Positions 1 to 47,623 of a DNA stretch of 47,623 bases are shown here, piece by piece. The translations under genes were made by a program, and so were the position numbers. Numbering within the stretch: position 1 is the first letter of the stretch; each line of letters opens with the position of its first letter. The DNA is from a phage: the sequence record PZ445468.1. One strand, 5' to 3'. The notes under the pieces are model-generated. The model searched no databases, was not told where the DNA came from, and saw only the letters and a list, made by a program, of their open reading frames with translations.

Positions 1-1425
1 ATGGCTAGAAAAAGACTCTCAAGTGTGGCAATTGAAAAACTTGAACAGGTAGTAGGTAACTCAACTGCAAAGCCTGAGTCTGCCGTGTTTGGGCTTGTAG
101 ATAAGTTACTCCATGATGGCACTCCCAATGTCGTAAAGCGCCTTAAGATGACAGCCACTGGGGTATCTGAAACTGATGAAGAACCAACAATATTAATTCC
201 TGAGCGGATGGAACTTATCCTTTACCCACGGCGCTTTAAGGTGTTTTATGGTGGTAGGGGCAGCTCCAAGAGCCGAACGTGTATATCCTACCTTATCGAA
301 AAGGCAAGGTTCCGCAACAGTCGCGTTGGTTGTTTTCGTGAGATACAGAACTCAATCAAAGAATCAAGCTATGCAGAGCTGGTCGATGAGATAAACAGGA
401 AGGGCCACACTCAGGAATACCGTTGCGTTGATGGTGAGATAACACACCACTCAACGAGGTCAAAGTTTGTTTTTCGTGGCCTGTGGCGAAACATAACCGC
501 CATCAAAGGTATGGCTGGTCTTACAGATGTGTTCTGTGAAGAATCCGAGAATATTAGTCAGGTGTCATGGGATACATTAATCCCGACAGTCCGTGCGGCT
601 GGCTCTGAAATTATTATTGTTTTTAACCCAAACAAAGAGACTGACCCCACGTGGACTAACTTTGTTGAGCCTTACATCGACAAGATGGTAGGTGGCATAT
701 ATCAGGATGATGATATTGTTGTTGTTAATGTTAACTACGTCCACAACCCGTGGTTCACTGAAGAACTTAAACAGCACATGAACCAGATGAAGGCAGTGGA
801 TTATGATCGCTATCTGTGGGTGTATGAAGGGTTATTCAACAAGCGTTCCGAAGAAGCCGTGCTTGGCGGGAAATGGCAAACGCTGGACTTCGAGCCATCT
901 CCCGAATGGGGAGGGCCATATTATGGCATTGACTTTGGTTTTTCTCAGGATGCAACCGCAGCAACAGAATCATATGTAGAAGATTTTGGCGATGGACGCA
1001 GAAACCTGTATATCTATCGTGACTTTGCAAAGGTTGGCCTTGAGATAACTGACACGCCGGAAGCGATGAGATCAGCATTCCCAAATTCAGAGAAGTACAG
1101 ATGGTATGGGGATTGCGCAAGGCCTGAAACAATAAGCCATATACGCCGATCTGGATTCGACATTCATCCGTGCGCAAAATGGCCGGGGAGCATTGAGGAC
1201 AGTATTACGTGGCTGCGTGGGTGTGACAGGATTTACGTGCACTCAAGATGCAAGCACGTCATTGAAGAGATGACAATGTACAGCTACAAGGTGGATAAAT
1301 TAACAGGGAACATACTCCCCGACATAGTTGATAAATACAATCACGCGATTGATAGTTTACGCTATGGACTTGGAGACCACATCGTTCAGCGCGGTAGCGG
1401 GATGCTAATCCGGCGCAGGCGATAA
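1..1425 (+). CDS. terminase large subunit
   Basis: 474-aa ORF with P-loop-like FYGGRGSSKSRT and acidic nuclease-like C-terminal half; upstream of portal; true start may be an internal Met. Confidence 0.8.
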   Translation: MARKRLSSVAIEKLEQVVGNSTAKPESAVFGLVDKLLHDGTPNVVKRLKMTATGVSETDEEPTILIPERMELILYPRRFKVFYGGRGSSKSRTCISYLIEKARFRNSRVGCFREIQNSIKESSYAELVDEINRKGHTQEYRCVDGEITHHSTRSKFVFRGLWRNITAIKGMAGLTDVFCEESENISQVSWDTLIPTVRAAGSEIIIVFNPNKETDPTWTNFVEPYIDKMVGGIYQDDDIVVVNVNYVHNPWFTEELKQHMNQMKAVDYDRYLWVYEGLFNKRSEEAVLGGKWQTLDFEPSPEWGGPYYGIDFGFSQDATAATESYVEDFGDGRRNLYIYRDFAKVGLEITDTPEAMRSAFPNSEKYRWYGDCARPETISHIRRSGFDIHPCAKWPGSIEDSITWLRGCDRIYVHSRCKHVIEEMTMYSYKVDKLTGNILPDIVDKYNHAIDSLRYGLGDHIVQRGSGMLIRRRR

Positions 1426-1430
1426 AAATA

Positions 1431-1450
1431 AAGCCCTCATCTGAGGGCTT
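1431..1450. terminator. bidirectional hairpin between convergent genes
   Basis: AAGCCCTCA/TGAGGGCTT stem flanked by A-run on plus and T-run on minus strand. Confidence 0.5.
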
Positions 1451-1646
1451 AAAGCTCATCTCTCAATCTTGATATATCACTCACAGCGGCATACATGTTA
1501 GATTTAACGCGTTCAGACTTTTCATCTCTGCATCTGTCTTTTATTATTGAAATTGCAATATTGAAAGCCTCAATCTTTGCCTCCCTTATCGCTTGATTCC
1601 TTGGTTTCACTTTCGCCTTCGGTATTTCACGAAGGCATCTCGGCAT
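1449..1646 (-). CDS. hypothetical protein (65 aa)
   Basis: ATG-initiated ORF directly after upstream small ORF; no clear RBS. Confidence 0.3.
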   Translation of the reverse strand: MPRCLREIPKAKVKPRNQAIREAKIEAFNIAISIIKDRCRDEKSERVKSNMYAAVSDISRLRDEL

Positions 1647-1650
1647 GTAA

Positions 1651-1806
1651 TTAGTAGGCATTTGATGGGTAGTAACCTTCTTTGATACCAAGCACCTTGG
1701 CGATTGTTGGGCCAACTTTCTGGGCGGTAACGATGCCAAATTTAACGTAATCAGCACCATAAGTTTCGGCAATGTACGCTTCGCATTCTTTTTTAGTCTC
1801 AAACAT
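1651..1806 (-). CDS. hypothetical protein (51 aa, MFETKKECEAYIAETYG...)
   Basis: ORF read by eye (below track threshold); AAGGAAC RBS 8 nt upstream of ATG. Confidence 0.4.
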   Translation of the reverse strand: MFETKKECEAYIAETYGADYVKFGIVTAQKVGPTIAKVLGIKEGYYPSNAY

Positions 1807-1840
1807 TTCTTTTGTTCCTTAATCTCTTGTCGATAAGATG

Positions 1841-1869
1841 ATTCTACATCACCACTATATCCACTTCAA
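1841..1869 (-). promoter_or_regulatory. sigma70-like promoter TTGAAG-17-TAGAAT (leftward)
   Basis: hexamers read on minus strand; the -10 coincides with ATTCTAC copy of recurrent motif. Confidence 0.4.
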
Positions 1870-1907
1870 CATTTATTATTATTGTTGATAAACCCGCATC
1901 ACCACAC

Positions 1908-1939
1908 TTGACCAATCTACACCGAGCGCATAGTATAAT
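1908..1939 (+). promoter_or_regulatory. sigma70-like promoter TTGACC-17-TAGTAT/TATAAT (rightward)
   Basis: hexamers with 17-bp spacer upstream of 1968 gene; two AATCTAC motif copies inside. Confidence 0.5.
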
Positions 1940-1967
1940 CTACATCAGGTTTATCGGAGATATCACT

Positions 1968-2174
1968 ATGCGCAGCTATGCAGGATTCACACAGGAGGAA
2001 AAAGAGCAGGTTTATTCACTGGCACGGGCTGGTGTGCCTGATGACGTGATTTGCCGTAGGTATGACATCGACGAGGATTTTCTGCTGCGCGTTATTGATG
2101 ACGTCTTCGTTAACCTGCAAGAGAAGCGCGGGTACAAGGGTATCTGCTGCAAGAATGATTTTTTGAGAGGGTGA
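1968..2174 (+). CDS. hypothetical protein
   Basis: ORF with GGAGA RBS; internal Met start of track ORF 1908..2174. Confidence 0.45.
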   Translation: MRSYAGFTQEEKEQVYSLARAGVPDDVICRRYDIDEDFLLRVIDDVFVNLQEKRGYKGICCKNDFLRG

Positions 2175-2175
2175 T

Positions 2176-2583
2176 ATGTTTAATAATAAACTAAAGAAAA
2201 TAATCCGCGATGCTGCGGATAAGAAATACACCAAAAAGATTGATATATCATTCATTGACGGCACTGGCCTGTACAATCACGCCTGTCACCTGAATGCGGT
2301 AAACCGGGCTAGAGATGGGAGTTCGTGCGCAGTGGTTGAGGTTGTGGTGATTGATGATAAGTCGGTGAGCGCTCATTACATCAATATGCAGTCAGACGGC
2401 ACATACATCGACTACACGCTTGGGTGGCACTGGTCAGGTGCCGATTACCGATTTGTGCGATATGTTCCGTTTACTGAATGGAGTGATATAACAAGTTCGC
2501 TTGAGCGCCTCAAGTCAGAACTTTGTAAGCCAGTCAGCAAATGGATGCGCGCCTTTATGTTAACTAATAACGAAATGTGTTGA
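2176..2583 (+). CDS. hypothetical protein (135 aa)
   Basis: ORF tightly packed after previous gene. Confidence 0.5.
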   Translation: MFNNKLKKIIRDAADKKYTKKIDISFIDGTGLYNHACHLNAVNRARDGSSCAVVEVVVIDDKSVSAHYINMQSDGTYIDYTLGWHWSGADYRFVRYVPFTEWSDITSSLERLKSELCKPVSKWMRAFMLTNNEMC

Positions 2584-3108: not shown

Positions 3109-3360
3109 AGGTGGGGTAATGACAAGGAAATAGGTTCACGAATATTCTATTGCAGCCAGGAAGCGCGTCGAAGGTGTATGGACGAATCATGGATTGCGCA
3201 GCAATAGAGCTAAATTGTTTGCAAAATGTCACCAAGTAGTAATTGGCGACAGGATTGAGTGTTACGCGTTTAATCAGTGGATGAAGTCTGGTGTTGTTAA
3301 TAAGGGATAATTACATCAGCACCGCGAGCATCATAATCAGCATTGCCACCATGCTATAAT

Positions 3361-3387
3361 CCCATCCAACGTGATGGGATTTTTTTA
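3361..3387 (+). terminator. rho-independent terminator
   Basis: CCCATC-caacgt-GATGGG hairpin followed by ATTTTTTT; immediately preceded by TGCTATAAT. Confidence 0.5.
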
Positions 3388-3394
3388 TTGGTGA

Positions 3395-5727
<2,333 letters not shown>

Positions 5728-23827: not shown

Positions 23828-24156
23828 AATTTATCCTCATTCATTTCCAGAAAGACAATCATGGCAGCGCGGAGTGGGTTTGTATCGAATGTTGTCTCTC
23901 CATCTTGACCATCTGCAAACCATATATCTCGATGGGTGCTTGGGGTTACCGATATAAAATTATTGGTAATAATCGGCCATGCATCAGCCGGGTTGTTGCA
24001 TGGGTCAAACTTTCGCTTAATATTTTTGTCATCAAAAAAGAAGAATCCATCGGGACATATGTGAGCCAACCCACCATTGGGGCAAAGGTTACTACTAACA
24101 AAAAAGAAAACCTTTTGCGCTATTTCCATGTCACTCATGTCTTCATAATTTTTCAT
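23824..24156 (-). CDS. hypothetical protein (110 aa)
   Basis: ORF. Confidence 0.45.
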   Translation of the reverse strand: MKNYEDMSDMEIAQKVFFFVSSNLCPNGGLAHICPDGFFFFDDKNIKRKFDPCNNPADAWPIITNNFISVTPSTHRDIWFADGQDGETTFDTNPLRAAMIVFLEMNEDKL

Positions 24157-31960: not shown

Positions 31961-34117
31961 ATGGCTACCACACCAACCAATAAACCAATTCCGTCAGAAT
32001 ACCCTCGCGACCTGAAATTTAATGCCGGGAAGATTGACGAGGTAGTGACATCTGATGCGCATTACTACACCGATCGCTTCGGCGTGCGCCGCTGGACAAT
32101 TGCTGGCTTCCAGCACACCGCAGAAGAAGCCATCCGTAACTATGGCTACATCACTATTGACAGCTTCGAAGATGGTGCAACACTGACGCTACCAAATCAG
32201 GTTTTGCGTTATGAGGCTACTGGAGAATATTACCGCTGGGATGGAGATTTCCCAAAAATAGTTCCGGCTGGTTCAACTCCAGATAGCACAGGCGAGGTTA
32301 AATTAGGAGCGTGGGTTAGTGTTGGTGATGCTTCATTGAGAAGTGATTTGGCCCTAACCACAGGCGCAGGTCTAGTTGGTACAACATCCGGCAGGACCGT
32401 ACAGGCAGAGTTTGATTACCGCAAAACTCAAGCGGAAAAAACAGAGATAAACATACTTGACTACCTTCCGGATAACGTGATCGCGGCGCTAAACGATGTT
32501 AATGCATCAATGGCTCTAGGAAGCGTAAGGACATACATCGAACAGGCTTTGGCGGCAGCAACGAGCGAGAATATCGGTACTGGGGTTACTTTACGTTTCC
32601 CGGCTGGGTTCTTTTGGCTTGATTCTACTCTTAACCTTCCTAAAAGGACGCGTATTGTTGGGGTCTACCCAGAAACATACTTTATGGCGCTCCCCAACTT
32701 TACCGGCACTAACGTAATTGCTGGCTCCACGGGACCAGCTATAGTCGCTATTGATAACTCAGGACAAGACCCGTTTTATATTGAAGGTTTCCAGATAAAC
32801 GCAGATGGCTCACAACCGAATGTGGTTGGACTGCACATTGGCGGATGCCGTAATTCCGTCGTCCGCCGAATATCTGTATCGGGGACCTTCGATGCTGCTG
32901 TTGTTATCCACCCTAAAAACGCAACATCTGGAGACGTGGAGAACCTGGAATTAAGCCACGTATGGACATTAGGTGGTGGGCTTGTGCTCAGGACTAATAC
33001 AGATATCGACCGTGGAAATTTAACAGGTCTGTCATTCCGGGATTGTATGTTTTTCAGCACAATCGACAACAACCCTTCATGGGCGACGTCCGGTAACCCA
33101 TCCATCAGATTCTCATGTCATACTGACAGACAGATTTTTTCATGTACATTCGACCGCGTTGGTTGGGGTAGTCGTGCGACATACGCTATTTACTCAGAAA
33201 GTCTTGCAGGAAATAGCGAGGCAGATGTAAAAGGTTTCCGTGATATCCATTTCTCTGATTTCGCCGGAGAATCCCACAACGCTGACGGCTCGCTAACATC
33301 AGACTGTACGTATGCCCTACTTACGAAGATGCGGAATAGCACATTTACTAACATCCAACGCTCTGGCGCCGTGACCCGTGGGGGTATCATTATGGATGGG
33401 TGCGAATATGTGACCTTCAACTCAGTGTCTTTTGCAGATCCCAATATTAGCACTGGAACAACTGCCCCACGGTGCGTATATCAAAACTCTACTAATAGAT
33501 TTAACCGTTTTATCAATTGTGACTTAACAGATGCTACTGGTAGTATGTTTGATTTAGATGGTTGGACCATAGCTAACAGTGTGATGTACTACTTTCAGGG
33601 CCTGTTCTGGGATGACAGTGGGACTAGTATCTGGGAATGTGAACAAATGTCTAGCACTCCTGGCGTTATGTTCGCAAGAAGTACATTAAACCAAAATAAC
33701 GGGTCGGCCTTCCCTCAACAGTCTGGGGTTACAATGCTAACTTCAGGCGACAACCTTCAAGTTACTTTTGCAAGAGACACCACTACTAAAACCTTTACAA
33801 TACCTATTACTACATCTTCTGGTGTATTTAATAACCATGACAGGGTGTATGTGGCATTTAGACATCAGTTCCTTAGCTATGGAACCAATACTGTAGTGAA
33901 AATAGGGATTGGAGGTAAGTATGTTACAATCAGTCCTCAATCGGGAATTGATTATTTTGCGGTGGTTAGTAGAGCACGTTCTTTGGCAACATCATTTGAT
34001 ATCCAAGTCACTTATAGTGGCGCTTCGGGAGATTGCATTATTCTTATTAGAGATTTAATTGTATCAAATAAAATGCCGTGGCTCCCTAACTTCACCAAAG
34101 TCTTACTTTGCGATTAA
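31961..34117 (+). CDS. tailspike / receptor-binding protein
   Basis: 718-aa ORF with beta-helix-like repeats; C-terminal part low GC. Confidence 0.65.
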   Translation: MATTPTNKPIPSEYPRDLKFNAGKIDEVVTSDAHYYTDRFGVRRWTIAGFQHTAEEAIRNYGYITIDSFEDGATLTLPNQVLRYEATGEYYRWDGDFPKIVPAGSTPDSTGEVKLGAWVSVGDASLRSDLALTTGAGLVGTTSGRTVQAEFDYRKTQAEKTEINILDYLPDNVIAALNDVNASMALGSVRTYIEQALAAATSENIGTGVTLRFPAGFFWLDSTLNLPKRTRIVGVYPETYFMALPNFTGTNVIAGSTGPAIVAIDNSGQDPFYIEGFQINADGSQPNVVGLHIGGCRNSVVRRISVSGTFDAAVVIHPKNATSGDVENLELSHVWTLGGGLVLRTNTDIDRGNLTGLSFRDCMFFSTIDNNPSWATSGNPSIRFSCHTDRQIFSCTFDRVGWGSRATYAIYSESLAGNSEADVKGFRDIHFSDFAGESHNADGSLTSDCTYALLTKMRNSTFTNIQRSGAVTRGGIIMDGCEYVTFNSVSFADPNISTGTTAPRCVYQNSTNRFNRFINCDLTDATGSMFDLDGWTIANSVMYYFQGLFWDDSGTSIWECEQMSSTPGVMFARSTLNQNNGSAFPQQSGVTMLTSGDNLQVTFARDTTTKTFTIPITTSSGVFNNHDRVYVAFRHQFLSYGTNTVVKIGIGGKYVTISPQSGIDYFAVVSRARSLATSFDIQVTYSGASGDCIILIRDLIVSNKMPWLPNFTKVLLCD

Positions 34118-37135: not shown

Positions 37136-39050
37136 CTGTAAAATCTTTTCTGTGGATTATGTCTCGGCCTTTATCATTAATACGATGCGTGATGCGTTTT
37201 GGCGATTTAATCAATCCAGCATACATCATGAATTGTTTTGCGTTCTGGCATTTCAGTATTTTCCCAGCCATTGACTTATCATCAAGGTGAGGAAAGATAG
37301 CCTTTGCCTTAAACATGTTTTTCATGTGAGTTGCGCCGCTATAAGGGTAGAAAACCTCGCTAGCCCATCCTTCTTTTCCGTCACAACGATTAATCCAGTA
37401 GCGATATAAAACCCCCTCTCCATCCTTCGTTAACTGAACCTTGAAATCCATAACGTCAGCCCATTCATTATCCGTATACGCACGCTCATTCAGTGCCGCA
37501 TTAGGGTCGCGCAGAACATGATCGCAATGTCGGCAATAACGCGCAGTAGGGTCATTTTTAGTCCCGCAACCATCATCAAAAATCCGTATTCCATGCTTGT
37601 CGAAACCGCAACGAATGTAGCTGAAAAATTCTTCGCATCGACCATCTGGCGATAGTACATCTTTGCCAATGCAGCGGCGCGCATATGGGCTGTTCATTGT
37701 TCCGCATTTCGGGCACGGAACCTGTTCACCACTGCGCCTTGAACGCTGAGCCTCAGCTTCTTCCAGAATCGGGTCTTCATACAGCTGACCAAGCTCAAAC
37801 ATCGTGCCTGAGAAATCAAGAACCAGATGGTCTTCTTTATGATACCCAGCATCAATTTGCTCCTTCTTCAGCAGGCGCATACCGCGACCAAGCAACTGGA
37901 CAAGGAGAGTTAGCGACATTATTTTCCTGAGGATTACGCTTACATCCCATAGCGGAATGTTTACTCCGGTCGTCAGCGCGGCTATCTGGAATGTGTATTT
38001 TATTTTGCCAGTGTACGCATCCTTTAGAGCCTTACGTCTGGCTTTTTGCCCCATATCTTCGGTGACAATAGCGTAGCTACCTTCTGGCAGATATTTAGCA
38101 GCTTCTAAACAATGCTTCTTGCCTGCGCAGGTAATTAACACTCCATTTCTATCTTTTGTAAGCTCCATCACTTTGAGCATGATTTTCTGTGTGAGAGTAC
38201 CTTGCTCAAGGATTTCTTCCTGCATCTGCTTAAGTTGTTCGGCAGTGAAGTCCTGCGTTCCGTCGATATCAGATCCACGGAATGCTGAAAGGTCGTAATG
38301 CAAATCATCAACATCATGAAGGCCAAAGATTGTTGGAACAACAAATCCGCGATCTACCATGTACTTTGTGTCAATGTTTATTATTTCATTCTTCCAGTAC
38401 GCACCTTTCATTGATTCAGTGCCACGGAATGGGCTTCCGGTGAATCCAATTGTTATCATTTCATGACCATGTTTTGCCTTGCATCTCCTGTTAAGTTCCG
38501 TAAGTATTACACCATATTGTGTTGTTGGATTCTCACTAATAATGTCCTGCCACGGAACTTGGTGCCCTTCATCGCACAGGCAAAATCTGGGGGCAAAATC
38601 ACTCAATCCACCTTTCTTAACGTCACCACTTGATTCATCTTTTTTATCAAAAAGTGCGTTAACGATTGTTCCTTCAGTTCCGCATATAATAGGGTATGCT
38701 GTACTTTTCCTGCCAAGAGATGCGCTATAAAGAGAATTTTTTACACCGCACTCCCACATCATTTCAGCATTCTGCTCTGCTATTTCCCCCTGCCTTGAAA
38801 TAACAAGGCCATCCCACCCCATATCCTGAAATCTACTGCAAAGCATTGAAATTATCACGGTCTTTCCTGATGAAACCGACGCTGTAACATAGCTTGGTTC
38901 AGGTTTCTTGCCAAAATTACGAATAACCTCAGCGCACTTTGCGTAAACAAGCCATTGGTAATCATATGGCTCTATGGAGCCTAATTTTATTGATTGCTTT
39001 AACTTCTCAATATTAATCTCTGAAATCATTTTGTCTATTTTGTTCATCAC
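37113..39050 (-). CDS. DExH-box superfamily II helicase
   Basis: Walker A SSGKT, DEGH motif II, C-terminal Cys4 zinc-finger pairs. Confidence 0.75.
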   Translation of the reverse strand: MMNKIDKMISEINIEKLKQSIKLGSIEPYDYQWLVYAKCAEVIRNFGKKPEPSYVTASVSSGKTVIISMLCSRFQDMGWDGLVISRQGEIAEQNAEMMWECGVKNSLYSASLGRKSTAYPIICGTEGTIVNALFDKKDESSGDVKKGGLSDFAPRFCLCDEGHQVPWQDIISENPTTQYGVILTELNRRCKAKHGHEMITIGFTGSPFRGTESMKGAYWKNEIINIDTKYMVDRGFVVPTIFGLHDVDDLHYDLSAFRGSDIDGTQDFTAEQLKQMQEEILEQGTLTQKIMLKVMELTKDRNGVLITCAGKKHCLEAAKYLPEGSYAIVTEDMGQKARRKALKDAYTGKIKYTFQIAALTTGVNIPLWDVSVILRKIMSLTLLVQLLGRGMRLLKKEQIDAGYHKEDHLVLDFSGTMFELGQLYEDPILEEAEAQRSRRSGEQVPCPKCGTMNSPYARRCIGKDVLSPDGRCEEFFSYIRCGFDKHGIRIFDDGCGTKNDPTARYCRHCDHVLRDPNAALNERAYTDNEWADVMDFKVQLTKDGEGVLYRYWINRCDGKEGWASEVFYPYSGATHMKNMFKAKAIFPHLDDKSMAGKILKCQNAKQFMMYAGLIKSPKRITHRINDKGRDIIHRKDFTGEQSEAA

Positions 39051-39622
39051 CTACTCCTGCTAAAATCACCGTGTAATGATTTTCTATATTTCTTTATGGC
39101 GTTACCTGCTTCCTCTGCTGTATTAAAGTAACCAAGATTAAATCTCCTGCCGTTAACCGCTATCCTTGCTCTCCACTTTTTACTTTTTGCATCAAAGCCA
39201 ACCCCTTTAAATCCAGATTGGTTATCAATTCTGATTTTCCTATTCATGCAGTTTTCGCTTGGTTTTGCCTCTCTTAAATTTAAGATGGCGTTATTTGATT
39301 TATCTAAGTCGATATGGTCAATCTCAAATTAAGGCCACTTCCCGTTAACATAAAACCATGCAAGTCTGTGGGCCATAAACCTGTATCCACCTATAACTAT
39401 GCGTACATATCCGGTATTCTCAACATATCCAGCTCTCGGTGAGTTACTGTGATTACCATTTCTCCACGTAAAAATTCCTGTTGATTTTTCATAATTAATT
39501 TTTGATTTAAGAAACTCATGGCTTAGCGATGACTCCTTTTGCTTTCTTCTCTCTAAATTTCTTGACTCTGCACCTGACAGAGCAGCACTTCGCCTTTGCA
39601 GTTCCGATGAACTCATTTCCAC
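39047..39622 (-). pseudogene. HNH-AP2 homing endonuclease interrupted by in-frame TAA
   Basis: both halves align to intact paralogue at 47116..; TAA at 39329-39331 sits where paralogue has E/K. Confidence 0.6.
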
Positions 39623-46115: not shown

Positions 46116-46287
46116 CGATATCAACGAAGCCATTCTTCATGCCATAAAGAAGCACGCAATGTATGGCAAGCGATACCATTTCGCTCTTATCCAGAGATTA
46201 AACAAAATTGAGGTGAGCACTCATCCAGAAGATGACAGACGACAGGTGATGTGGTCAACGAGGTCTATGAAGCATGCAAACAACTAA
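46108..46287 (+). CDS. hypothetical protein
   Basis: ORF, ATG internal to track ORF. Confidence 0.35.
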   Translation: MFNDINEAILHAIKKHAMYGKRYHFALIQRLNKIEVSTHPEDDRRQVMWSTRSMKHANN

Positions 46288-46447
46288 ACAGAAAGTCTGG
46301 CAACTCGCCAAACAACACGAGCTGGATGATTTTATCGCAAAGGTGGCAAAGACATTCCCTGACGCACTTGAAATCGTTCATGTGCAGACGCGAACAGAAA
46401 ATGCATGGTGCTATGCTGGCAAGCGTGATAATGATGGTATACAATAA
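46274..46447 (+). CDS. hypothetical protein (57 aa)
   Basis: short ORF read by eye with GAGG RBS. Confidence 0.3.
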   Translation: MQTTKQKVWQLAKQHELDDFIAKVAKTFPDALEIVHVQTRTENAWCYAGKRDNDGIQ

Positions 46448-46492
46448 GCACATAACCACCATTGCTTTCACTCATATCATCACCCAACCTTT

Positions 46493-46518
46493 AACCCGCC
46501 TTGTGCGGGTTCTTTTTT
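46493..46518 (+). terminator. rho-independent terminator
   Basis: AACCCGCCTTGTGCGGGTTCTTTTTT. Confidence 0.7.
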
Positions 46519-46540
46519 ATCTACGTCTATGTGTTAAAAT
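46519..46540 (+). promoter_or_regulatory. extended -10 promoter TGTGTTAAAAT preceded by ATCTACGTC
   Basis: TGnTAAAAT 36 nt upstream of 46576 ATG. Confidence 0.45.
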
Positions 46541-46575
46541 TAACGTATGTGAGTTACTCAAAGAACACAAAAGAC

Positions 46576-47016
46576 ATGGCGAATCCAAATCCAAAACACA
46601 AGTTTTCCTCTACAAATCAACCACCTCCGCGCGGCAAGAGCTATCGTACTGTGCTACTTGAGGCATTGCGTGCTGCAAATACGCCGATGAATGAGATTGA
46701 ATTCGTCACGTACTACATCAATAGAGCAATGACATGTGAAGATGCTCAAGCTACCGGTATGTTGCGGGAAATATTTCTGCGGCTCAATCCAATTCCAAAG
46801 CCTGTAGCTCCTCCTGTAGAATTTGATTTCCCAGCTGACGGAACTCCAGTGCAAAAAATGGATGCAATCATCAAGGGCGTCTCCACTGGCGTTGTTCCTG
46901 CTGATATCGGCAAGATGATGGCTGACATTATCAAGTCTGGCCTTGATATTCAGGAGATCACCGAACTCGCCGCGAGACTTGAGCGACTGGAGAAATTACT
47001 GGAGCAACAACAGTAA
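46576..47016 (+). CDS. putative terminase small subunit
   Basis: basic NPNPKHKF N-terminus; sits upstream of HNH and large terminase across the window junction. Confidence 0.4.
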   Translation: MANPNPKHKFSSTNQPPPRGKSYRTVLLEALRAANTPMNEIEFVTYYINRAMTCEDAQATGMLREIFLRLNPIPKPVAPPVEFDFPADGTPVQKMDAIIKGVSTGVVPADIGKMMADIIKSGLDIQEITELAARLERLEKLLEQQQ

Positions 47017-47115
47017 CTGATTTATAATAATCAATGCGGCTAGGGGGCACCCGAAAAGCGACTCATCACCGCCTGCCGCATTCACTTCAATGATGCCCTG
47101 ATGAGGAAGCTATAT

Positions 47116-47623
47116 ATGCTTACGCAAGCAGAATTAAAACACATCCTTGATTACAATCCTGACACCGGAATTTTTACATGGAAAAACCCACACAAGCAGG
47201 GAAGGGCTAAACCCGGGAAGATAGCAGGAACAATAAAATTATGCGGCACCGTTGGTAGCAAGCGGCTGTATCACTACATTCATTTTGGAAGGAAGTGGTA
47301 TAGATCACACAGGCTGGCTTGGCTTTACATGACTGGTAGTTGGCCTGAAAAAGAAATAGACCACATAAACAACAATACGCTTGATAATCGTTTTGTTAAT
47401 CTGCGAGAGGCTGACCATCAACAAAATGGTTACAACAAAAAGCTACAGGCAAACAACATGTCAGGGGTTAAGGGTGTGTACTGGGATAAATCAAGATGCA
47501 AGTGGATGGCGAGATTAAATATAAATGGCAGGGAGGTTAACATTGGCAGGTTTGCCAACATTGAAGATGCAGTCAAAAAGATAATGGAAGAAAGAGAGAA
47601 ACATCACGGGGAGTCTTGTAATC
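47116..47623 (+). CDS. HNH-AP2 homing endonuclease (runs off window end)
   Basis: GIFTW, RLAW, IDHINNNTLDNRFVNLREA HNH motif and AP2-like C-terminus; no stop within window. Confidence 0.7.
   Translation, partial: MLTQAELKHILDYNPDTGIFTWKNPHKQGRAKPGKIAGTIKLCGTVGSKRLYHYIHFGRKWYRSHRLAWLYMTGSWPEKEIDHINNNTLDNRFVNLREADHQQNGYNKKLQANNMSGVKGVYWDKSRCKWMARLNINGREVNIGRFANIEDAVKKIMEEREKHHGESCN

Follow-up and report, generated by a model that had tools for sequence, protein, structure and literature searches.

A circular Skatevirus-group phage genome opened at its large terminase gene, next to an HNH gene best explained as a homing-type cassette

The DNA that we analysed, a single window of 47,623 nt, is the complete genome of Bas81, a siphovirus of the Skatevirus group, in the form of a circular contig written from the ATG of the large terminase gene (terL). 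The gene located immediately upstream of terL codes for an HNH endonuclease and spans the two ends of the window. Comparisons with related phages point to a selfish homing cassette as its best explanation, with the terL start lying in its 3' codons. We regard as very probable the joint explanation in which a circular Bas81 genome was cut at terL, the upstream HNH gene is a mobile cassette of the homing type, and the virion DNA is packaged by the headful mechanism. The features around the junction are the following, in window coordinates.

46493-46511: terminator-like hairpin upstream of the operon, found in a scan of 46200-47623.
46576..47016, plus strand: ORF of 146 aa, the operon's first gene (Bas81_0001, annotated CDS, 'hypothetical protein'), candidate small terminase gene (terS) by position only.
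47017..47115, plus strand: 99-nt spacer travelling with the HNH gene (98-99% identity where the terS-like genes have 62-65%).
47103-47109, plus strand: Shine-Dalgarno (SD)-like GAGGAAG, 6 nt before the HNH ATG and inside the 99-nt spacer.
47116..47623, plus strand: HNH_3 + AP2 endonuclease ORF, codons 1-169 and the first base of codon 170 (Pfam, phrog_99, AlphaFold).
47608..47613, plus strand: SD-like GGGGAG in the 3' end of the HNH gene, 10 nt upstream of the terL ATG, read from the sequence.
1..8, plus strand: 3' terminal 8 nt of HNH (c|AT GGC TAG), of which bases 1-3 double as the terL start codon (joined translation, GenBank CDS 541..1056).
1..1425, plus strand: terL, 474 aa (Pfam Terminase_3 and Terminase_3C; TIGR01547).
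7..25, plus strand: block of substitutions in terL codons 3-9 linked to the presence of HNH (column comparison of 14 genomes with HNH and 9 without).

We first give the identity of the window. A megablast search matched it with 100% identity to PQ850630.1 (Escherichia phage TanjaMuster_Bas81), a record of equal length (47,623 bp) whose topology is flagged circular. The two are the same genome with the same overlap between HNH and terL: rotating PQ850630.1 by 1,048 nt, such that the terL ATG provides base 1, reproduces the window except for 4 substitutions (window positions 23945, 33168, 33596 and 33948). These are all far from the junction and all nonsynonymous; the tail fibre gene has three of them and a hypothetical gene the fourth. 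The window junction 47623|1 falls at 1048|1049 inside PQ850630.1, where the annotation places an 'HNH endonuclease' CDS at 541..1056 and a 'terminase large subunit' at 1049..2473, i.e. the 8-nt overlap is already annotated. Bas81 belongs to the BASEL collection (Humolli et al. 2025, PMC11990801), for which circular contigs were linearised at the terminase gene or at the operon start. Its authors opened Bas81 at the operon's first gene, and the copy in the window was opened at terL. Opening the circle at the terL ATG cuts the upstream HNH gene 8 nt before its stop, and hence the ORF looks open. The contiguity of the window ends is thus a consequence of where the circular contig was opened. The original prediction of contiguous ends and of a complete circular genome is borne out by the circular record of identical length with a CDS across the junction, which also means that the joined ends were already known from GenBank. 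The main importance of the finding on the end junction is one of bookkeeping, the gene being already correctly annotated there. More generally, an ORF running off the end of a phage sequence may be an artefact of the opening point of a circular contig.

The sequence around the junction is consistent with this identification. The HNH ORF starts at ATG 47116 and remains free of stops for 508 nt (169 codons plus one base) until the window end, as had been noted from the sequence alone. We joined the end to the start and translated the result: with positions 1-8 appended (...AAT c|AT GGC TAG), the ORF yields a protein of 171 aa ending in ...HGESCNHG*, with its TAG at 6-8. It overlaps the terL ORF (1-1425, ATG at 1-3) by 8 nt, ATGGCTAG. 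In the joined sequence, no second frame reads through the junction, and we found no terminal direct repeat of 8-400 nt common to both ends of the window. At an arbitrary junction, one of the two complete codons that come first will be a stop by chance in ~9% of cases (1-(61/64)^2). Hence, the closure of the ORF is weak evidence when taken from the sequence alone, and one might argue that it is coincidental, the window ends being apart in the real molecule as a result of an incomplete or mis-joined assembly. Yet, the junction lies inside a circular record of equal length, and it is internal to many independent contigs. The ATGGCTAG junction is present in at least 16 other HNH-carrying genomes, in most of them inside the contig. 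The overlap between the HNH stop and the terL start is annotated in Sf11, IME207, KpnS_VR6602 and VLCpiS13e, and it is also found in SEzh_1, EcoIv28_Lewi and 12 IMG/VR contigs. The C-terminus of the protein tells the same story, since it fits the consensus of the family (...HGEFANHG in an alignment of 37 sequences from diverse homologues): the two residues encoded by window positions 1-5 complete a family-typical end. The exact NHG end is found in 25 of the best 120 database homologues. A coincidental closure or a mis-join is already refuted by these observations, and we give it practically no weight.

The overlap itself is unremarkable. Neighbouring genes on the same strand overlap in the Bas81 annotation by 1 nt (n = 16), 4 nt (n = 16), 8 nt (n = 4) or 11 nt (n = 2). 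The gene preceding terL, which may be HNH, an ORF of 45-52 aa or the terS-like gene, ends 1, 8 or 11 nt into terL in 27 of the 28 genomes examined. In one variant contig, for example, HNH ends 11 nt into terL, at a TAA arising from CGT AAA. The SD-like GGGGAG is kept as GGGGAG or AAGGAG in every aligned HNH allele, including those of the divergent KpnS_VR6602 and VLCpiS13e. With its own SD inside the 3' end of HNH, terL probably relies on translational coupling or re-initiation, and would do so equally behind the other genes that can precede it. The overlap of HNH and terL is of the normal operon type, and its earlier description as an ordinary coupled-gene overlap is fair.

How the circle relates to the DNA in the virion is a separate matter. 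End contiguity alone does not tell headful permutation from collapsed terminal repeats, and the BASEL methods mention that collapsed direct terminal repeats can also yield a circular contig (PMC11990801). The terL protein matches Terminase_3 (4.2e-35) and Terminase_3C (3e-12) in Pfam, and TIGR01547, the PBSX family. For the ATPase domain the match is to Sf6 gp2 (4idh, 4.9e-34), and for the nuclease domain to SPP1 G2P (2wbn, 1.8e-07). Sf6 gp2 and SPP1 G2P are terminases of headful packagers, and these matches group the Bas81 terL with known headful terminases. The small subunit, in contrast, is not recognisably related to those of P22/Sf6 and SPP1. Phage KlebP_265, whose terS-like and terL proteins are respectively 94.5% and 60% identical to those of Bas81, showed 'no obvious genome termini' in a PhageTerm analysis and is described in the same study as permuted with terminal redundancy (PMC11769527). 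The contig ends of phage Skate were joined by PCR (PMC6606912). The packaging and termini of Skatevirus are not mentioned in the Skate announcement, nor in the Sf11, CECAV or Foods papers. Together, these data indicate that the virion DNA of Bas81 is likely packaged by the headful (pac) mechanism, circularly permuted and terminally redundant. The assembly of such DNA would give a circle, and we infer that the circular assembly results from the permutation and terminal redundancy of the virion DNA. An alternative keeps the junction internal and the genome complete, but has the virion ends fixed elsewhere, by short direct terminal repeats or cos, the circle then resulting from collapsed repeats. 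We found no terminus determination for Bas81 itself, which leaves some room for fixed ends. However, they are rather unlikely in view of the similarity of terL to Sf6 gp2 and SPP1 G2P, of the PhageTerm result without termini for KlebP_265 and its 94.5% identical terS-like protein, and of the way relatives were deposited, i.e. opened at many different positions with no agreed end.

We then concentrated on the HNH protein. It matches HNH_3 in Pfam (E 5.5e-15, 55.2 bits for a cutoff of 24.8) and phrog_99, 'HNH endonuclease', in PHROGs (3.6e-66). The catalytic residues of the HNH domain are intact: D82, H83, N91, N95 and N104 are invariant in the 37-sequence alignment. A second Pfam match, to AP2 (E 1e-05), has 26.2 bits and is under the gathering cutoff of 33.3; most homologues carry a precomputed Pfam AP2 assignment. 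In the AlphaFold model (pLDDT 90), the C-terminal domain consists of a three-stranded sheet and a helix and superposes on the plant AP2/ERF domain (1gcc, rmsd 1.6 A over 51 columns; Foldseek probability 1.0 with a weak E of ~0.1). A phmmer search of the PDB gave no match at all and Foldseek matched the AP2 half only, so that neither recovered a solved HNH homing enzyme (e.g. I-HmuI). HNH-AP2 endonucleases of phages, cyanobacteria and ciliates were reportedly described by Magnani, Sjolander and Hake in Plant Cell in 2004. The Bas81 protein has the same two-domain architecture, with a C-terminal AP2-like fold in the model, but its AP2 half is less clear-cut by the Foldseek E value and the Pfam score given above. 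A tblastn search located 5,617 copies of homologous genes, distributed over 3,449 phage records. Their contexts are unrelated, the neighbours including genes for exonuclease, polymerase, primase and thymidylate synthase. Many of the homologues carry a homing endonuclease annotation, one genome often has several, and at least 3,088 protein clusters have the same pair of HNH_3 and AP2 domains. The Bas81 gene is a free-standing ORF between the terS-like gene and terL, outside any intron or intein. Judging from these matches, its product is predicted to combine an HNH_3 nuclease with a DNA-binding domain of the AP2 type, an architecture typical of free-standing phage homing endonucleases. Regarding the start of the gene, we considered the in-frame ATG at 47101 (176 aa, as annotated in Sf11) and rejected it: the SD-like GAGGAAG precedes 47116, and the shorter form is the one annotated in Bas81 and IME207.

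The site occupied by this gene varies between close relatives. We retained 23 genomes whose terL has 75-97% nucleotide identity with that of Bas81 over nt 31-1425. HNH is directly upstream of terL in 14 of them and is missing from this position in the other 9, counts that concern related genomes and not independent events. The slot without HNH takes several forms. In Seszw_1 the terS-like gene runs straight into terL, which it overlaps. In Bas78, KlebP_265 and others, a hydrophobic ORF of 45-52 aa stands between the two. In Segz_1 terL begins right behind the 99-nt spacer, such that the ATG used elsewhere by HNH is the terL ATG; precise removal of the HNH ORF from Bas81 would give a junction of this type, ...TATATATGGCT.... 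The spacer is present in Segz_1 and missing from most of the genomes lacking HNH. Where HNH is present, there are at least four alleles at the same site (100/94%, 65%, 50% and 44-46% amino acid identity), and at least four alleles have the last ~35 nt in common. The comparison of Bas81 with Lewi, IME207, Sf11 and L017 reveals nucleotide identities of 98-99% in the spacer and 95-96% in HNH, versus 62-65% in the terS-like gene and 84-94% in terL. In addition, the presence or absence of HNH cuts across both clades of terS-like genes. The much higher identity of the cassette relative to its flanks, together with the distribution of HNH across the terS-like clades, suggests recent horizontal movement of a sharp-edged unit. 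In phages of the Skatevirus group, the place upstream of terL and downstream of the terS-like gene is thus a hot spot: its occupant may be one of four or more HNH alleles, a small hydrophobic ORF or the spacer by itself, and it may also be empty.

A few other observations concern this region. The original prediction had not seen the HNH gene as a variably present mobile cassette. The RNA folding energy of the 99-nt spacer is no better than that of shuffled sequences (z = -0.81); a stem in it, AUGCGGC/GCCGCAU, varies compatibly in two divergent genomes. Promoter-like matches in 46200-47623 are at chance level.

The location of the gene raises the question of whether the HNH protein could be a part of the packaging machine, needed by the terminase to cut concatemers, like HK97 gp74, the HNH proteins of GVE2 and phi12, and HrdP of Skunavirus. 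Indeed, the gene is placed directly between the terS-like gene and terL, and it overlaps the latter and is co-transcribed with it. Terminase-adjacent HNH genes are known packaging components from the work of Kala et al. (2014) and of Quiles-Puchalt et al. (2014), to which PMC5304195 and PMC12724721 refer. Against this, HNH is not kept at one and the same site throughout the group: the 9 of 23 close relatives that lack it have terL sequences up to 94% identical in nucleotides, and their slot has other fillers or, in some, no gene. The cassette is also conserved far above its flanks, a pattern that a mobile insertion of recent date should produce. The domain differs as well, being HNH_3 with a predicted AP2 domain, and not the small HNH of cos phages, which is of the PF01844 type. 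The packaging HNH class is said, by Kala and colleagues in 2014, to be associated with cos packaging; the Bas81 terL, however, matches Sf6 and SPP1, and KlebP_265 lacks fixed termini, both of which indicate headful and not cos packaging. Hence, Bas81 resembles HK97, GVE2 and Skunavirus in having an HNH gene that adjoins the terminase genes, but differs from them in that this gene is not universal in the group, belongs to another HNH subfamily, has a predicted extra AP2 domain and accompanies a headful-type terminase. In Skunavirus, the packaging HNH is found in every genome at a fixed site, while the variable HNHs are of the homing type (PMC12724721). By this criterion, the variable presence of the Bas81 gene makes it of the homing type; its HNH_3 and AP2 architecture and the headful-type terminase seem to point the same way. 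We rejected the role of packaging factor on variable presence and domain type, and regard it as very improbable. An HNH gene beside a terminase should not automatically be taken as a packaging factor.

The protein encoded by the first gene of the operon deserves separate treatment. The order proposed originally, terS - HNH - terL, stands for the identities of HNH and terL and for the arrangement of the three genes, whereas 'terS' was a positional guess that homology and fold do not support. The 146-aa ORF, the first gene after the terminator-like hairpin at 46493-46511, has no match in Pfam or NCBIfam, nor in the PDB when searched by sequence with phmmer, and it falls in phrog_9747, a PHROG without function. 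Its AlphaFold model is all-helical with a 37-residue C-terminal helix (pLDDT 75, pTM only 0.39), and Foldseek searches of this model against the PDB and BFVD gave no functionally named match. The protein is thus not recognisably related to P22 gp3, Sf6 gp1 or SPP1 G1P, nor does it show homology of sequence or fold to a known terS family. On the other hand, it is small, helical in a model of low pTM, and encoded in the same operon upstream of terL, from which HNH or the 45-52-aa ORF can separate it and which it overlaps directly in Seszw_1. In distant relatives of terL, the slot of the 146-aa ORF is occupied by Terminase_2 or GP3_package proteins, members of recognised terS families. It is therefore plausible, by position, that the protein is a terS. 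The authors of the KlebP_265 study stated that no terS was identifiable in this phage group (PMC11769527); homology points to no small terminase in the group, and the 146-aa protein is the obvious candidate. Since HNH is a variably present mobile cassette, the order terS-like - HNH - terL says little about packaging.

The mobility of HNH may have left a trace in terL itself. The alignment of terL from the 14 genomes with HNH and the 9 without shows 7 columns with a difference in base frequency of at least 0.8. All 7 fall within nt 7-25, while the other 1,400 columns of the gene contain no such difference. Carriers of HNH start terL with ATG GCT AGA AAA AGA CTC TCA AGT GTG and non-carriers with ATG GCT CGT AAA CGC CTC TCC GCA CTG; the HNH-less allele has ATGGCTCGTAAACGCCTCTCCGCACTGGCAATC and the carrier allele ATGGCTAGAAAAAGACTCTCAAGTGTGGCAATC. 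Over nt 31-1425, L016 and Bas78, which lack HNH, share 94% identity with Bas81, but only 63-73% over nt 1-30, whereas Sf11, which has HNH, is 84% identical over nt 31-1425 and 100% over nt 1-30. At two of these 7 positions, the base is in part imposed by the stop codon that HNH requires (the TAG arises from GCT AGA). The block at nt 7-25 is a candidate co-conversion tract and/or a cleavage-resistant version of a homing site. A simple right-hand boundary of recombination of the cassette would explain it equally well.

The mobile unit appears to extend from the 99-nt spacer through the HNH ORF and ~25 nt into terL, with the terL start codon sitting within the codons for the conserved C-terminal Asn-His-Gly of HNH. 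During mixed infection, the enzyme would nick or cut the HNH-less allele near the 5' end of terL, and repair from the genome with HNH would copy the cassette together with the adjoining terL codons 3-9. The altered codons would then protect carriers from self-cleavage. Such intronless homing is known for free-standing HNH enzymes, namely MobA and MobE of T4 and F-Tfl of the T5 group (Edgell, Gibb & Belfort 2010, PMC2988022), and within this framework the block at nt 7-25 resembles a short co-conversion tract or a resistant target. Like these enzymes, the Bas81 protein has an HNH nuclease and a putative separate DNA-binding module, its gene is intergenic between conserved genes and variably present, the cassette is above its flanks in conservation, and flanking markers are linked to it. 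There are also differences. The putative module of the Bas81 protein is AP2, unlike those described for the T4 Mob proteins. The linked flank in Bas81 spans ~25 nt and is immediately adjacent, whereas the free-standing enzymes of T4 often cut hundreds of bp away (PMC2988022). Finally, the last codons of the Bas81 HNH give the start codon of an essential downstream gene, unlike in the T4 and T5 enzymes.

A more specific proposal combines two parts: that the spacer, HNH and terL codons 1-9 form an active homing element targeting the first ~25 nt of terL, and that phrog_9747 is a new terS family in Skatevirus and Roufvirus. We put it forward as tentative, with chances somewhat short of even. If homing is confirmed, imprecise deletion of the element would be difficult and the expression of terL would depend on it, given that terL starts within its Asn-His-Gly codons. 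In that case, the BASEL collection would also contain a compact and tractable pair of homing endonuclease gene and target, with Bas81 as the carrier and Bas77-80 lacking HNH at the site.

An extra HNH endonuclease gene is found directly upstream of the terS-like gene (the small-terminase candidate) in some relatives, and therefore homing-type nucleases flank or invade the packaging operon at several positions. The terL of Salmonella phage Segz_1 is 839 aa long because about 363 aa are inserted within its Walker A motif, which is split as GGRG/CLAIGT...LGLWLGDGS...VTHN/SGKT (slashes mark the insert boundaries). The insert resembles an intein carrying a LAGLIDADG-like endonuclease. If so, it would represent a second, distinct selfish element aimed at terL in the phage group of Bas81. 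Segz_1 lacks the HNH ORF, yet it retains the spacer that accompanies it in Bas81. In relatives without an HNH gene directly upstream of terL, a hydrophobic ORF of 45-52 aa (e.g. MFKLSMSLMACAMLMFAMGG...) lies between the terS-like gene and terL and overlaps both neighbours, by 8 nt upstream and by 1 or 11 nt downstream.

Genes in or beside the packaging operon of relatives
Segz_1 (L004, NC_054640.1), 3212-5714: terL, 839 aa
Bas78 (L007), 1-489, and KpnS_VR6602 (L009), 1-483: extra HNH endonuclease gene
Bas78, 1106-1264; KlebP_265 (L059), across the record ends; L016, L019, L024 and L026-L028: hydrophobic ORF

Bas81 itself encodes a second HNH_3-type paralogue, located just downstream of a 645-aa helicase-like gene.

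39047-39526, minus strand: HNH_3-type paralogue, sharing 37% identity with the HNH next to terL

This paralogue looks like a homing endonuclease gene in decay. An in-frame TAA (39329-39331) breaks it directly before the catalytic EIDHID motif, and the GenBank record has no CDS at this location, the locus tag Bas81_0082 being absent from its table. The equivalent site of KlebP_265 carries a split pair, 'homing endonuclease' and 'HNH endonuclease'.

Two hairpins were identified upstream of the HNH and terS-like genes.

46493-46511: terminator-like hairpin, 7-bp stem with 5 G-C pairs, then a T run
47034-47081: putative imperfect hairpin AUGCGGC...GCCGCAU, in the spacer that precedes the HNH start

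The terminator-like hairpin, which precedes the terS-like ATG by 65 nt, marks the start of the terS-like - HNH - terL operon, and this fits the point at which the BASEL authors opened their record. The spacer hairpin has both sides changed in VLCpiS13e (AUGCGGA...UCCGCAU), and one of its pairs is G-U in KpnS_VR6602. Its fold energy is no better than that of shuffled sequence (z = -0.81).

The window differs from PQ850630.1 at only four positions (23945, 33168, 33596 and 33948), all of them nonsynonymous, and its source may be a variant stock or host-range derivative of Bas81.

31961-34117: tail fibre/tailspike gene, three of the four substitutions (A403G, K546Q, T663I)
Minus strand: hypothetical ORF, the remaining substitution (I71T)
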